DNA of 64,000 nucleotides from the sequence record PZ171033.1. One strand, given 5' to 3'. This document shows positions 6,225-25,400 of this stretch, piece by piece. Below the pieces are notes generated by a model. That model worked only from the letters and a program-made list of their open reading frames with translations, was not told the origin of the DNA and searched no databases. Numbering within the stretch: position 1 is the first letter of the stretch; each line of letters begins with the position of its first letter. This DNA comes from a phage. The position numbers and the translations under genes were made by a program.

Positions 6225-6620
6225 ATGTCTAAAGTATTCAGAAGTAATCGCAAAGCAACTGATGAAGACATCATTCGTATGAATGCTGTTGGTCTGTCCC
6301 TCGCAACTATCGCTAAGACGTTGGGGGTTCACCCCACTACGGTTACTTTGCGATTGCGTTCTCTAAACATCGAACCAGCCGATACACGTCGGACGTTCAT
6401 GGAAAACGTATTAAGACCTTTACCAACCCATGTGGCTGATTGGCTATCAGAACAAGTTGGTCCTGCTTATGAGATTCGTTCATATGTAAGAGACTTGATT
6501 CTGGAGGCATATAACAATCGCCACCTTAACCAAGAGAGTGAGCATGACAAGTTCATCCGTTTGTACGCTGGCAAATACGGAAGCCTGGTTCCGGAAAGCA
6601 GTACCAAATCCAACGAGTAA
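6225..6620 (+). CDS. putative DNA-binding protein with helix-turn-helix
   Basis: HTH-like segment GLSLATIAKTLGVHPTTV; RBS GAGGAAA. Confidence 0.5.
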   Translation: MSKVFRSNRKATDEDIIRMNAVGLSLATIAKTLGVHPTTVTLRLRSLNIEPADTRRTFMENVLRPLPTHVADWLSEQVGPAYEIRSYVRDLILEAYNNRHLNQESEHDKFIRLYAGKYGSLVPESSTKSNE

Positions 6621-18522: not shown

Positions 18523-19225
18523 TCTGGTAGGTGGCTCAGAAGCTGCTGCTATTTGTGGTAGTGTTCGTAATTCTGATGCTATTGCTTATCAGGATTCTGG
18601 ACGTGTCGGCTCCATACATAGCATTTATCATCACTGTACTTATACTTTGGAAACTCAGTGATAAAAACGGTGGTGACAAGCCGCCAGAGTAACAACAACA
18701 ACCGAACCAGTGGACTTTAATACTCTCCGAAGTCCACAGGTTCAATCTAAACTAAGCGGAAAAGTTAGCTTTTTCTTGGGTGTAGAACCTGTTGAAGGAA
18801 ACAAAGAATTTCACATTGAATAGTTAATATCGTAAAGGGTTCTGTTAGAATCCTTTGAGATAGGAACTCCTATCATAACTATTCTTAACTTAATCTTTGC
18901 CGTATGGCACTGACGCTAGGGGTGGCCCCCCATCCGTCAGGTAGACTATTTTAAGAATGGGTTATCACAGCAAATGTAAAGCAACATTCGGGTTAATCAA
19001 TGGCCTCTCCCTATAGGGGCCATTTCTGAATCTTAGGCTATATCCCAAAGGTTAGTATCTTTGGGATAAGGCTTCAGATCTCTTATCAACTAACGCTCAT
19101 GTTGAGCATTCTACTCACACAAGCCCCTATATGGGCTGGGTTAAATGTCGGATAGCATAGCTACCTACAGCATCGAGATGTTAGGTCTTACATGTAATAT
19201 AGGGTATAAAGGGAGGACTCGTCCC

Positions 19226-19242
19226 CTCCCTCCTATTATAAT
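19226..19242 (+). promoter_or_regulatory. promoter-like motif copy 1 (CCTATTATAAT)
   Basis: C-rich tract + TATAAT directly upstream of tRNA-like element. Confidence 0.3.
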
Positions 19243-19243
19243 G

Positions 19244-19313
19244 GTCGGGGTAGCACGTAGGCATGTGCGGATGGTCGCTACTTCCCTCGCTGGTTCGAAT
19301 CCAGCCCCCGACT
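19244..19313 (+). tRNA. tRNA-like element (non-canonical anticodon arm)
   Basis: 7/7 acceptor stem GTCGGGG/CCCCGAC, D arm GCAC/GTGC, T arm GCTGG-TTCGAAT-CCAGC; anticodon arm does not pair canonically by hand. Confidence 0.35.
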
Positions 19314-19864
19314 TACTGACATCCTATCAATGAGTACATTAGGCTAACGTGCGGAGGTTTACACTGTAGCCGGTGTAGGTGGAGAAGACGGCAGGGTAGC
19401 TACCTGTGCTTAGTGTACTCTTTGATAGTTTTCGTAAGCGATTATGCGGTTTTTTAGAAACGAACCAATAACATAAATGCAAACGATGATGTTGTTCTGA
19501 TGGCGGCGTAATAGCCTGTAAGTCAGCAAGGTCTTCCGACTCCTTGTAAGCAAATTCGGCGCAGTGGCCCGCTGTGATTAATAATGGGCACACAACAGGT
19601 AAGAGCATTTAGGCTACTGAGAAATCATCCGAGGCAATCAGACCTATCTTCTGTTAAGTGCTCTTTCCGTTGTGGTGAATGCGCAGGCTGATGCGCAGTG
19701 GGACGTGGCTGACTCACGAGGATGGCTCAAGCGAATAAGCAAGCTCGACGCCGCCGAATAAGCGCCTTATGCCGGAGATCAGCACCGGCCACCACAACAA
19801 GTCCAGACGATATCTGAGTGACTATAAAAACAGATGGAGCCAGGTGGAATCCCTGGCAACTAAT

Positions 19865-19930
19865 TCCGGTGTAGGTACTAGTGTCGTGCACGGCATGAGC
19901 ATTCTGGTTCGAGTCCAGACGCCGGAACCA
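19865..19930 (+). ncRNA. short tRNA-like element with encoded CCA
   Basis: Acceptor TCCGGTG/CGCCGGA, T arm TCTGG-TTCGAGT-CCAGA, 3' ACCA; only 31 nt between acceptor and T stem. Confidence 0.3.
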
Positions 19931-19932
19931 AT

Positions 19933-20056
19933 TATCAGTTGCACGAGATGGCTTGACATGTTCAAGTTTGGACTAAGTGTGACACCGCTAGATTGGAGGG
20001 CTGCTGCGGTAAGCTATAGACTCCAACCGGAGGTTCGAATCCTTCACTGATAACCA
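19933..20056 (+). ncRNA. 124-nt tRNA-like RNA with encoded CCA
   Basis: T arm GGAGG-TTCGAAT-CCTTC, 3' ACTGATA-A-CCA; only complementary 5' strand TATCAGT is 122 nt upstream. Confidence 0.25.
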
Positions 20057-20414
20057 ATTCAAAGTAGCATTGCACTAACCCATCCCGGAGTTCAAAGGCC
20101 AAACATGGAGCAGTGCTACTCTGAATTAGAAGAATTATGGTGGGTCTGGTGAAGTAGATAGGGTTCGATTCCCTCCGGTAGAGTAATCTACTAGCGTGCT
20201 TGGTGCACGAATAAGACTTAATACTGGTGGTTCAATTCCATCCCCCACTGCCTATTTGAGGTGTAACAGTTAAATCCAGTTGCCGGAAGTGCTATTCTAG
20301 ATACGCTGCCAATGTGTGAACGGTAAGGCTGTACAGGACTCGGACTCCCACCTCAAACCAAAGTCGCCAGATACTTATGGCAAACGGGTAGTAACGAACT
20401 AGTCATTCGTCAAA

Positions 20415-20432
20415 CGCCCACCCTATTATGAG
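20415..20432 (+). promoter_or_regulatory. promoter-like motif copy 2 (CACCCTATTATG)
   Basis: Near-identical to copy 3. Confidence 0.3.
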
Positions 20433-20610
20433 TCAGCAAGAACGCCTTCATTTAAACTTAAACAAAAAAGCTTAACGCAATAATTATGTAGGGGTATGTA
20501 AGGATTGCGAAGAAGGAGCCAGTTAAAGTCTGGCATGACTCACCTAATTGAGGCTGTACTTATGTTCTACAGTAGGTGCACAACACTGGGCTGCTACACC
20601 CAGAGGTACA

Positions 20611-20628
20611 GCCTCACCCTATTATGGG
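20611..20628 (+). promoter_or_regulatory. promoter-like motif copy 3 (CACCCTATTATG)
   Basis: Near-identical to copy 2. Confidence 0.3.
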
Positions 20629-20693
20629 TAGCCTATACTAGTTATAGGGCAGATAATCTGTGGCAGTGTAAGGCTGCACTACCCTTTCATTAA

Positions 20694-20769
20694 TACCCGG
20701 TAGGCTTAGTGGTAAAGCCCCACTAGTAAACCAACTAGGACGCAGGTTCGAATCCTGTCCGGGTAGCCA
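20694..20769 (+). tRNA. tRNA-like gene with encoded CCA (6-nt anticodon loop)
   Basis: Acceptor TACCCGG/CCGGGTA, D arm GGCT/AGCC, T arm GCAGG-TTCGAAT-CCTGT, discriminator G + CCA; anticodon stem CTAGT/ACTAG with 6-nt loop. Confidence 0.4.
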
Positions 20770-20774
20770 TTTAT

Positions 20775-20859
20775 GCCCACTTAGCTCAGTGGTAGAGCGC
20801 AGGAAAGCTTCGAGAGAACAAGGTGTCTGTGGTCACTGGTTCAAATCCAGTAGTGGGTA
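20775..20859 (+). tRNA. tRNA-like gene, 85 nt, no pairable anticodon arm
   Basis: Acceptor GCCCACT/AGTGGGT, canonical D arm TAGCTCAGTGGTAGAGC, T arm ACTGG-TTCAAAT-CCAGT; 36 nt between D and T arms with no 5-bp/7-nt stem-loop. Confidence 0.4.
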
Positions 20860-21174
20860 CTTATTTGCTGCAATATTCCCATAGGGAATGGTGTCGTATA
20901 CGCCACCTAGTTTCTGGTGAAACTCCAGATGCAGCAATCCATTCAGCAGTAACATAGTCCTGATTGCATTGCACTCTAAAGACAACACTGGTAAGACAGT
21001 CCAGTGGCTGCTATTGTATTGTTATTCCCCTCGACGGGAATTTCGCTAGTGAAGGTAACACTTAAAAATCCAAACCCACGTCTTACTGCTATCGGGCTAT
21101 CAACCCACAGTCGCTTAACACACTAGTGGTAGTAGTTTGACGACCTAGCCTCGTTAGCTGCGTTAAAGCTACTA

Positions 21175-21210
21175 AGTCCCCTAGAGGGGCGGCTCTAGGG
21201 GACTTTTTTA
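21175..21210 (+). terminator. strong intrinsic terminator
   Basis: 12-bp stem AGTCCCCTAGAG/CTCTAGGGGACT then T6. Confidence 0.7.
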
Positions 21211-22407: not shown

Positions 22408-25400
22408 TTAGTTTATCAGGTTCATCCAAGGGTTCAGGTTGTGAGCACGTAAGCCTTGACCGAAACCGAAGGAGTAACCAAGATTGCCCTGTGCAGCAAT
22501 ACTAAAGATGTTGTCCTGAATAGGCAGGCCAACGTTACCAAACATGGTAGGGGTTGGGGCCAACATAGCCATAGCAGCATGAACTGGGTTATTACGAATC
22601 ATGGACACTGCAACTTTTGCAGAACGAATCTTAAAGTTGTAGAACCACATCAGACCAACACTTTCCATATACCCACGGAAACGACCTGGCAGACGATCAT
22701 AGTTAATAAACTCTTCCGTTACACGTCCTAGTGCTTCTTCGCGAGTCTTACCTTTACGCTGAGTTAATTCATCATAGATGATTGCTTTAGCAATAAAGTC
22801 AGAGTACTCAACCGTCTTCTGGATACCCTGGAACAAAGCAGTATCCTTAGTGATAAGTGCATAACGACCAGCATTACGTACAGACTTAGGCAGCTTATCA
22901 GCCAACTTATCCATGTACTCGTGAAGTTTACCTTCAGTAATCAGGATGTCGTCACGACCAATACCAGCGTCTGCAATTGAAGAGAACTCACCTGCTTCTA
23001 ACAGGGGCCAGATACTCAAACGCTTATGACTATCAGAGATGGACTGAATCTCAGCCTTAAGTTTACGAATCTGGTTCGGGTTAGTAGCTGCACGTAATTC
23101 TGCTTCTGCATCTACCTGACGCAGACGAGATTTCAGATACTGGTTAATCTCAGCAGTTTTCTGTGGAATGCTCTTAGCAATGTTCTTAACAGGTACACCA
23201 CGAGCAACCATCTGGTAAAGGTTAGCCAGGAAGTTAACAGCAGGTACGACTACTGACTTAACTACAATCAGGGTCTTAGCTTCTTTAACTAAATTCTGAA
23301 CCAGGTTCTCACCACCCATTACGTATTTATAGGCACGGTTACCGAAGACACCCAACATAGCTTTCTTGAAGGTATCCAGTGTTTCTTGGGACCAACGAGA
23401 GTTACCAGACCAGGCATCACCAACAGAAGCTGCACGATAGCCGAGAGCATCATTGAGCATGTCACGACGTACCCACAGCTCACCAGGACCAAACAGACTT
23501 TCTGCTTTCTGACGTGTTTCACTATTCATCAGCTTAAGTGCATCGGCAGTTACTGGGTCCAGTTTAGAACCAAGAAGGTTAACGTACTGGGACTTATTAG
23601 AAGCAGACATCTTAATGTCGTTCTCATACATGCTATGCAGGTTCTCAATTAGCATATCGTTGAAACGCTGAGCCTTAGCCTCTTCTACCTGACGACCACG
23701 CCATACACCGATTGCACGAGCAAGATGGTTCTCACCCTCAATGTGCTTCAGCATGTTAGGGTCAATGGATTGCTCATAAGCAACCACATTACCATTGGCA
23801 TCATATACAGGCAGAAGTGGTTCATTACCACGTTCACCACGAGCCAGTGCTTTAGTGATACGATCTACAGAAGGCTTGTCAGTAATACGACCAGCTACCA
23901 TGGTTCCCATAGTAAAGCCTGTACCAAGGTCCACACCACCAGCAGTATTGCGAACGTTCTGTAAGATACCCTGTGAGAATGGGGCCTGTGCCTGTACTGG
24001 TGCGAAGTAGTAGCTACGAGCAGGACCACGATTAGCAGAGCTACCCTGATATGTACCCAGTCGTACATAGGATTTCTCAATCAAATCAGCAAACTGACTA
24101 TCTTCAGCAACAATCAGATTAACACCCTGTTTAGTCTCACTAGGGATATGCCCTTTGTACTGGTTCAGGGTTGCACGCATATCAGATTTGGCTTTAGCCA
24201 TTTCATCTTTACGCTGACCAACCAGGTAAGAGGTGGCAAAGTCCATCCCATCAACTTCTGTCTGAGCCAGTGAAGATAACATCTCACGGTCGGACTTGTT
24301 CATTGCTTCCAGTGCATACAGGGTAATCAGTTTATCCAGTTGAGCTACATCTACAGTAGAGCGTGCAGCCTGACGTTCACCCAGCATACGGGAGATTGCA
24401 GTAGCATTACGCAGCAGGTTTTTACCGACAGTACCATTAATCATGTACTGAGCCAGTTGCTTAGATTTACGGTTAATCAGAGGCCAGTTACGACCAGCTT
24501 GTTTCTGCAAATCTGCTTCCAGCTTATTCACTTCACGGTCAACAATCTTCTGGTCAGTCAGTAAGTCACGGATTTCAGCCAGTGACATAGTGTCACGCAG
24601 GACAGCTAAATCTGTTTTACCCATACCAGTATGCATTACTTTCCACTCATCATTAGTCAGCTTACGGCTGAACTTAGATGCGATAGTAGTAGGCAGATGT
24701 TCACGGAACTGCTGACGGTCTGCCTGCACCTGTGCACGTACTGCTTTAATCAAATCGTATACAGAAGCATTGCTCTTAGTACGACCGGTTAAGTCATTAA
24801 CCAGGTCATGGAAAGGTTGCCATACCTTACCCTGGTTCATTGCAGCCATAACACCTTCAGCTACGATTGCACCATTCTTCTCTGTAGCAATAGCAGCTAC
24901 CAGTTGTGCAGCATGAGCAGCACCTTTAACCAATGGATTATTGGTATTGGCTGCAACTTCACGAGCACCTTCCAAAGCACGGGTAGATAGTACATCAATA
25001 GAATCCACCAGATACTGGTTAGCACGGTCAATAGCATTACCAGTAGGAGTAGCAACGGAATCATAGAAGGATTCTGCATTAAGACTGGTCTGCATAATCG
25101 TCTGAGCCAGTGCATCCATACCTTCCTGTACGTTAGTAGCTTTAGTATCACCTGCTACACGAGCATTCAGACTAGCCATTGCAGCAGTACCAATGTTAGT
25201 CAGCATTGCATCAACGGTATTACCTGATTTCTTATCTGCTTTCATGACAGGAATGTCAGCCAGTACTTTACGTACTTCTTCACTTACCATTGCCAGACCA
25301 ACAAAGGTAGGCAGTAAAGAAGATCGACCTTGTGCATCAAACTCAATGTTGTTAGCACCCATGATGGTATCGAACTTCTGCTGTGCATAATAACGATCAG

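Follow-up and report, generated by a model that had tools for sequence, protein, structure and literature searches.

A conserved unannotated 124-nt RNA with tRNA-type ends predicted in the non-coding cluster of Gamaleyavirus phages

Stable RNAs built on a tRNA frame were recognized in the tRNA clusters of phages fifty years ago, examples being species 1 (rnaC) and species 2 (rnaD), two small stable RNAs from the tRNA cluster of T4; to our knowledge, the function of T4 species 1 RNA is still unknown. A tRNA-like frame is also part of transfer-messenger RNA (tmRNA), the genes of which are known in standard, permuted, and intron-containing forms. Molecules consisting of the tRNA-like domain (TLD) of tmRNA only, as in mycobacteriophage DS6A, are reported to inhibit host tmRNA (PMC4131195, PMC11915505). 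In this work, a stretch of phage DNA of 64,000 nucleotides (nt) was analyzed (sequence record PZ171033.1; hereinafter, the window), in which a sequence-only reading had proposed an RNA of 124 nt (19933-20056, plus strand) with the acceptor and T-arm ends of a tRNA. Comparison of the sequences of related phages showed that a structured RNA, the ends of which are genuinely those of a tRNA, is conserved in this stretch, which would represent an unannotated gene. The closest analogue in kind is T4 species 1 RNA (rnaC, 139 nt), and the 124-nt RNA is a new unannotated family of phage tRNA-framed stable RNAs, a kind already known from T4. As for its role, we give roughly even odds (about 50%) that the stretch is the gene for a stable, non-decoding tRNA mimic acting together with a neighboring tmRNA-like tag RNA on translation or ribosome rescue.

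When the letters of the window were re-read, TATCAGT, the T arm GGAGG/TTCGAAT/CCTTC, and the end ACTGATA-A-CCA were all found where the sequence-only reading had placed them (Table 1), as was the spacing of 2 nt between the CCA of the preceding 66-nt element (19928-19930) and the 5' strand of the 124-nt RNA. The order of elements at the junction was that of tRNA, namely, acceptor stem, U8, arm I, arm II, T arm, acceptor stem, and A-CCA. Inspection of the internal loop of arm I revealed A14, G15, and GG at 19970-19971 followed by A residues, with an insert of 19 nt (index 18-36) before the GG that forms a 7-bp hairpin (19950-19956 with 19962-19968, loop CAUGU). In our reading of the sequence, A14, G15, and GG would be tRNA core residues, and arm I would be a D arm carrying a hairpin in its loop. 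The place of the anticodon arm is taken by a domain of 44 nt (index 51-94), which combines an 11-nt linker, a 6-bp stem, and a loop of 22 nt (GGCUGCUGCGGUAAGCUAUAGA, 19999-20020) without a 7-nt anticodon loop; therefore, the RNA cannot decode. Arm II was present in the predicted centroid and consensus folds. Thus, of the insert of about 50 nt that had been suggested within the tRNA-like domain, the presence of extra RNA held, but it is divided between two inserts, the 19-nt hairpin in the D loop and the 44-nt replacement of the anticodon arm. A pseudoknot between ACCGC (index 52-56) and GCGGU (index 74-78, 20006-20010) was also considered; it fits the single A52G variant and was not demonstrated, and this pairing was not conserved in the N4-type cores described below.

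Table 1. Coordinates of the predicted parts of the 124-nt RNA and of neighboring features in the window (index 1 corresponds to position 19933)
Feature	Position	Strand	Remarks
Acceptor stem, 5' strand UAUCAGU, index 1-7	19933-19939	+	Pairs with 20046-20052
U8 and arm I (D-arm position)	19940-19980	+	4-bp stem, 19941-19944 with 19977-19980
Invariant single-stranded linker GACACCGCUAGA	19981-19992	+	ACCGC at 19984-19988
Arm II (anticodon-arm position)	19993-20026	+	6-bp stem UUGGAG/CUCCAA, 19993-19998 with 20021-20026
T arm GGAGG-UUCGAAU-CCUUC	20029-20045	+	Rfam tRNA model positions 46-63; pair 99:111 covaries
Acceptor stem, 3' strand ACUGAUA (20046-20052), discriminator A (20053), and encoded CCA (20054-20056)	20046-20056	+	Sequence, covariation
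66-nt tRNA-like element (module C)	19865-19930	+	UCCGGUG/CGCCGGA, central hairpin, T arm UCUGG-UUCGAGU-CCAGA, ACCA
tmRNA-like tag RNA	19318-19805	+	5' long helix (module B1), PK1-like region, tag frame, downstream helices
Strong intrinsic terminator	21174-21205	+	13-bp perfect stem, then T run; closes the plus-strand non-coding region

A blastn search with a 141-nt query retrieved 43 phage records belonging to Gamaleyavirus and the Klebsiella Kaypoctavirus group. An RNA was annotated at the locus in none of them (0/43), and small hypothetical open reading frames (ORFs) were placed over it in some. RudolfBernhard Bas96 and ECBP1 are examples of carriers. The fetched loci of both groups contained 13 distinct versions of the RNA, each exactly 124 nt in length and without indels. 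In these versions, 99.5% of the cells of the five-helix structure were paired, compared with 28-47% when the partners were slid by 1-3 columns; the observed covariation score was reached in none of 500 shuffles, and five pairs had changes on both sides. Three of the seven acceptor pairs covaried (3:118, U-A/C-G/U-G; 4:117, C-G/U-A; 5:116, A-U/G-C), and pair 2:119 was G-U in one metagenome copy. Pair 99:111 of the T stem was A-U or G-C depending on the version, and the hairpin inserted in arm I, the loop sequence of which was variable, showed changes at 21:33 (U-A/C-G), 18:36 (G-U/G-C/A-U), and 24:30 (A-U/G-U). The proposed closure of a tRNA-like domain by the distant strands TATCAGT and ACTGATA, together with the T arm and the length of 124 nt, is thus supported by covariation.

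The interior of the RNA (index 37-97) was invariant between the two genera except for three rare single changes, whereas the surrounding helices drift and the flanks were unalignable. The linker changed only as A52G in PW7 and as G59U in one metagenome variant. In arm II, neither the stem nor 20 bases of the 22-nt loop changed in any of the 13 or more versions, and covariation speaks neither for nor against this arm. It should be noted that A-TCA replaced A-CCA in two different sequence backgrounds (loci L011/L163 and L157; metagenome and IMG/VR copies), so that the encoded CCA is either not strictly required or rebuilt by a CCA-adding enzyme. Three scans of viral contigs and one metagenome scan for more divergent homologues yielded near-identical copies only, and a 14-mer scan for further homologues gave chance matches only. 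No counterpart was found by blastn among 5,426 E. coli genomes.

Comparison with canonical and class II tRNAs (RF00005) revealed, from sequence and covariation, the same 7-bp acceptor stem, U8, T-psi-C type T arm with UUCGAAU, discriminator with CCA, and order of the four-way junction; the differences were the length (124 nt versus 70-95 nt), the hairpin in the D loop, the 11-nt linker before arm II, and the lack of an anticodon arm with a 5-bp stem and a 7-nt loop. ARAGORN called no tRNA at the 124-nt RNA, and no Rfam family matched it at curated thresholds, tmRNA and YrlA included. When Rfam was run on the element alone (E up to 10), only the T arm was recognized, by RF00005 with 12.1 bits against a gathering score of 29; a closer acceptor partner that would give a tRNA of normal length was not found by either program. 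A covariance model built from the 124-nt RNA only had genuine tRNAs, aligned end to end, as its next-best matches (17-29 bits), the best of them being a class II tRNA-Ser (29 bits), which confirms the tRNA frame from the other direction.

The 124-nt RNA corresponds to the T4 type in that it lies in a phage tRNA cluster, falls within 120-140 nt, and has a T arm beside a 3' strand that pairs back to the 5' end. As rnaC demonstrates, stable RNAs of such a size on a tRNA frame are indeed produced by phages from within tRNA clusters. Like it, rnaC stands at the end of a tRNA array adjoining tRNA-type genes, has a similar T arm (CCGGG-UUCGAAU-CCCGG), and carries two long internal arms where the D and anticodon arms would stand. 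However, the acceptor closure of rnaC is imperfect and its CCA is not encoded, whereas the 124-nt RNA has a perfect 7-bp stem and an encoded A-CCA. Homology of the two RNAs was not supported: the model of the 124-nt RNA matched a part of rnaC with 14.6 bits (E = 0.01), which was no better than its matches to ordinary T4 tRNAs. Nothing relevant on T4 species 1 RNA was found in the literature searched.

With the TLD of tmRNA, the 124-nt RNA shares an acceptor/T-arm module without an anticodon, and DS6A provides a case of a phage-encoded TLD standing alone. It differs in the pairs U1-A72, A2-U71, and Y3-R70, in being self-closed, and in having no similarity to E. coli ssrA. The domain does not enclose a tag, since the RNA closes on itself and the tag frame (19479-19511) belongs to a separate upstream module. 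Two related candidates were rejected. Descent from host ssrA had rested on a supposed match to UUGGACUAAG, which was wrong, as E. coli ssrA reads UUGACUAAG, and the alignment score was equal to the shuffled mean. A far-upstream partner, TATCAAT at about 19330, which would have produced one giant tmRNA, was constant in KP8 while the 3' strand changed. In the literature searched, phage tmRNAs were limited to mycobacteriophages, Bacillus phage G, and 79 database entries, and nothing was found on tRNA-like RNAs of N4-like phages or on tmRNA-like RNAs of enterobacterial phages.

YrlA (RF02553) resembles the 124-nt RNA in having a tRNA-mimicking module with a genuine T arm; the single YrlA match in the region was due to chance and extended across two adjacent tRNAs. 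Both YrlA and a T-arm core of the N4 type have a long closing helix and no free CCA, in contrast to the 7-bp acceptor stem and free A-CCA of the 124-nt RNA. This CCA-less core was observed in N4 (locus L152, 2131-2245), G7C (L017, 6275-6395), Yersinia phage TG1 (L165, about 880-985), Pylas (L166, about 905-990), and FSL SP-058 (L153, about 2415-2500), and a few records label it tRNA-Undet. It stood alone with its long closing helix in N4, G7C, and T4-like Yersinia phages, and in Pylas and FSL SP-058, it was embedded at the apex of the 5' helix of the tag RNA. Its layout is that of the 124-nt RNA minus arm I, namely, U, ACCG, a 4-nt linker, a stem, a 22-nt loop, and the T arm; the loop reads UGUUGUGGAAAGCUA in N4 and UGCUGCGGUAAGCUA in the 124-nt RNA. 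None of the 43 records that carry the 124-nt RNA was among the 31 records with the N4-type core. Homology between the two was rejected, since the sequence similarity was marginal (p of about 0.04 with N4 and no significance with three others) and nhmmer gave no link.

The tag RNA located upstream of the 124-nt RNA contains the frame GCA AAC GAT GAT GTT GTT CTG ATG GCG GCG TAA (ANDDVVLMAA*). Rfam matched it weakly as tmRNA_permuted (31.2 bits, E = 7e-4) and partially as beta_tmRNA, with matches only at 19408-19560; here and in four other phages, the matches of the tmRNA models were confined to interior positions and never included the tRNA-like domain. The tag RNA has no enclosing tRNA-like domain of its own. 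Homologues of the tag module were found in about 900 phage records of unrelated groups, almost all of them unannotated, including Felixounavirus, Ackermannviridae, several siphoviruses, and P1-like phages, and other tags of the classical type were ANDNVFLAVA, ANEEMYLAVA, and ANEEAYLMVA. Among the 17 mapped loci with the 124-nt RNA, the tag module preceded it in 16, and in KP8-type loci, the RNA began about 5 nt after the ACCA end of the 3' minihelix of the tag RNA. The tRNA-like parts beside or inside the tag RNA differed between phages, being located at its 3' end or within its 5' helix. In Felixounavirus Alf5 (locus L021, 866-947), a 79-nt tRNA-like element with G3:U70 and ACCA was observed about 100 nt after the tag RNA; it scored 31.7 bits with the Rfam tRNA model, and the record had no annotation for it.

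The following course of events is proposed. By analogy with established tRNA biology, the cluster would be transcribed as a polycistronic precursor, and the position of the 124-nt RNA just after an upstream CCA is the arrangement of such a precursor: in every context, whether the neighbor was the 66-nt element or a minihelix, the RNA started 2-4 nt after the upstream ...ACCA. RNase P would cut at U19933, as in the known maturation of E. coli tRNAs. This enzyme favors U at position -1 and a 3' RCCA in E. coli, and both features were present in most versions of the 124-nt RNA. After the same cut, the upstream element would still carry a short trailer, to be trimmed back to the CCA by 3' exonucleases. 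The stable L-shaped RNA thus released may be recognized by tRNA-handling proteins, the L-shaped fold being probable since the core residues of tRNA (U8, A14, G15, the GG of the D loop, and UUCGAAU) are kept. The invariant 44-nt domain with arm II is likely the working end, probably binding a specific factor. In the weakest step, the 124-nt RNA and the tag RNA would jointly act on the machinery of translation or ribosome rescue, with the 124-nt RNA serving either as a free-standing tRNA-like module for the tag RNA, which would have lost such a domain of its own, or as a competitor of host tmRNA or tRNA for binding proteins.

A number of observations weigh against this interpretation. The link to tmRNA is positional only. 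Phage U1G has the 124-nt RNA without a tag module, most tag-bearing phages lack the RNA, the pair G3:U70, by which tmRNA is identified for charging with alanine, is absent (3:70 is U-A, C-G, or U-G, the U of the last being on the 5' side), and no conserved pairing with the tag RNA was found, the best duplexes lying at different sites in three phages and being no better than in shuffles; for these reasons, the step that concerns the role is weak. None of the tmRNA models (RF00023, RF01849-51, RF04321) matched 19925-20062 at E up to 10, and the comparison with tmRNA models that had been suggested for the 124-nt RNA gave, instead, a weak match to the tag RNA about 420 nt upstream. The RNA is also accessory, being absent from pSb-1 and three other loci of close relatives, and the 3' CCA, present in all other versions, is UCA in two variant lineages. 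Two of the five helices, 9-12/45-48 (4 bp) and 61-66/89-94 (6 bp), never vary and are unproven, as covariation neither supports nor contradicts invariant stems. Shuffled sequence reached a comparable minimum free energy (z = -0.17), i.e., the fold is not unusually stable, and the support for it is comparative rather than thermodynamic. Finally, cleavage by RNase P, stability, and the L shape of the 124-nt RNA are what we infer from tRNA biology and from the conserved residues. Thus, a functional link of the 124-nt RNA to the tag RNA is plausible but unproven. A stronger version, in which phages would encode trans-translation in split form, with the 124-nt RNA as its chargeable tRNA-like half and the neighboring tag RNA as its mRNA-like half, appears to be only a slim prospect.

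Other explanations of the conserved stretch were also considered. It is possible, although rather unlikely, that the RNA is an anti-defense decoy unconnected to the tag RNA, that is, a tRNA mimic that absorbs or inhibits immunity factors or toxins of the host directed at tRNA (anticodon nucleases, acceptor-end nucleases or nucleotidyltransferases, and tRNA acetyltransferases were proposed as targets). A mosaic cluster with presence and absence among close relatives is typical of accessory counter-defense loci, further tRNA-like RNAs with non-functional anticodon loops occur in the cluster (20694-20769, 20775-20859, and the 66-nt element), and a different 147-nt tRNA-like RNA of a Kuravirus has the same acceptor ends (U1-A72/A2-U71...G6-C67/U7-A66 and ACCA). 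However, an invariant 60-nt interior resembling no E. coli sequence would not be needed by a simple decoy, no defense system or target was identified, and no paper in the literature searched connects N4-like phages with tRNA-like RNAs. The interior bears likewise on the suggestion that the tRNA frame serves as processing punctuation only, recruiting RNase P to form the CCA end of the upstream RNA and leaving the 124-nt RNA as a by-product. Such tRNA-like signals are well known from MALAT1-mascRNA and from the tRNA punctuation of mitochondrial transcripts, and the RNA always adjoins an upstream ...ACCA in two different upstream contexts. A signal of this kind requires the acceptor and T arms only, yet it is exactly these that drift; since RNase P does not need the interior, its invariance counts against a pure processing signal, and the 124-nt RNA has a well-formed A-CCA at its own 3' end. 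We therefore regard punctuation alone as quite unlikely.

It is very improbable that the stretch is a functionless tRNA gene that is decaying or was disrupted by an insertion: a tRNA frame within a tRNA cluster, with neighboring tRNA-like genes that are aberrant as well, would be expected of such a remnant, but the exact length was kept, three helices were compensated, and the 60-nt core was invariant in two genera, 43 records, and metagenomes. Conservation due to a small protein (minus-strand ORFs of 40-47 aa were annotated) or to a signal at the DNA level, rather than to an RNA, is scarcely credible. Some records have a "hypothetical protein" over the locus, and one minus-strand frame was open across index 33-124 in all loci; however, the limits of the ORF differed between loci, with its N-terminal part lying in non-homologous flanks, and almost every substitution was non-synonymous in this frame and, in the RNA helices, compensatory. 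Protein coding was rejected accordingly, the open frames having no conserved limits and the substitutions in the minus-strand frame being nearly all non-synonymous. A non-decoding tRNA mimic acting with the tag RNA thus remains the interpretation that we prefer, at the odds given above.

The RNAs surrounding the 124-nt RNA form a mosaic cluster, the modules of which were present, absent, or reordered among close relatives. The 66-nt element has three arms, and a comparison of the window with KP8 revealed covariation in the T stem and the central hairpin; the KP8 record labels the element tRNA-OTHER. It is preceded by a conserved leader of about 60 nt (19806-19864); in Kuravirus XT18, this leader precedes a different tRNA-like RNA. 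The element adjoins the 124-nt RNA in Gamaleyavirus loci, and in KP8, it is located downstream of the 124-nt RNA, not upstream. The upstream neighbor in KP8-type phages and PhAPEC7 is a 7-bp minihelix ending in ACCA instead of the 66-nt element. An exact direct repeat of 11 nt, CCGGTGTAGGT, was observed at 19370-19380 and 19866-19876. One copy coincides with the 5' acceptor strand of the 66-nt element and the bases that follow it, and the other lies in the variable apex of the 5' helix of the tag RNA, where it is followed by GGAGAAGACGG, resembling the 5' end of tmRNA; the repeat may have been left behind when a tRNA-like domain was rearranged.

Several further tRNA-like elements were observed in the cluster. 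At 19243-19314, directly after a GC-rich hairpin and CCTCCTATTATAAT, a tRNA-like gene begins that ARAGORN called tRNA-Ala(cgc) and Rfam matched weakly as tRNA-Sec (28 bits); its CCA is not encoded. An element of about 115-125 nt at 20131-20256, which is kept in KP8 and G7C, contains two hairpins resembling T arms, AGGG-TTCGATT-CCCT and GGTGG-TTCAATT-CCATC, and is closed in the manner of an acceptor stem. Two aberrant tRNAs were located downstream, one with a 6-nt anticodon loop (20694-20769, "anticodon ac" according to ARAGORN) and the other with a 24-nt insert in the anticodon region (20775-20859); relatives have a tRNA-Ile(aat) of normal length in the latter place. In the 147-nt tRNA-like RNA of Kuravirus vB-EcoP-XT18 (locus L154, 2581-2727), a hairpin is inserted in a region resembling the D loop, and the acceptor stem UACAGGU/ACCUGUA, a T arm, and ACCA are present. 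This RNA was found in 13 Kuravirus records, none of which annotates an RNA (0/13) and one of which places a hypothetical protein over it.

On the basis of sequence identity, the window comes from a Gamaleyavirus, that is, an N4-like coliphage of the family Schitoviridae: positions 19200-20900 had 93-97% identity to St11Ph5, ECBP1, Bp4, nithesis, and others, with the match in each genome broken up into several pieces. The upstream genes were those of an N4-type SSB and a RuvC-like resolvase, and downstream, an ORF of 3456 aa begins at 22408 on the minus strand and has the length expected of the virion RNA polymerase. Between about 18700 and 21200 (approximately 2.5 kb), no convincing ORF was found; this non-coding stretch has the strand of its flanking genes, and the 124-nt RNA lies within it on the plus strand. 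The motif CC(C/T)TATTATG/A was observed at 19228-19240, 20421-20430, and 20617-20626, just 5' of structured RNA modules, as well as in locus L028 (about 1738-1750) and in locus L017 of G7C (about 6270-6282), and in several phages it adjoined the base of the first helix. A cluster-specific promoter or a processing site may be represented by this motif, which had no further occurrence in the 64-kb window but was not more frequent than expected by chance. The motif CCCTATTATG was rejected as a general promoter, as it was confined to the non-coding cluster in the 64-kb window and its count was not above chance.

In about 43 deposited genomes, the locus of the 124-nt RNA is thus occupied by spurious small ORFs or carries no annotation. 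The RNA is a clean new example of a phage tRNA-framed RNA, with ends supported by covariation and an invariant 60-nt core marking the functional part, and since it occurs in phages, one of the BASEL collection among them, that grow on E. coli K-12, it is experimentally tractable. If the doubtful split system were true, phage lineages would pair the tag RNA with the 124-nt RNA, the 66-nt element, the G3:U70 element of Felixounavirus, or the T-arm core of Pylas and FSL SP-058, and this would be a tmRNA architecture outside the three known gene forms. Since the 124-nt RNA usually stands shortly downstream of a widespread and mostly unannotated tag RNA, phages may possibly use RNA parts of a modular kind to manipulate ribosome rescue.

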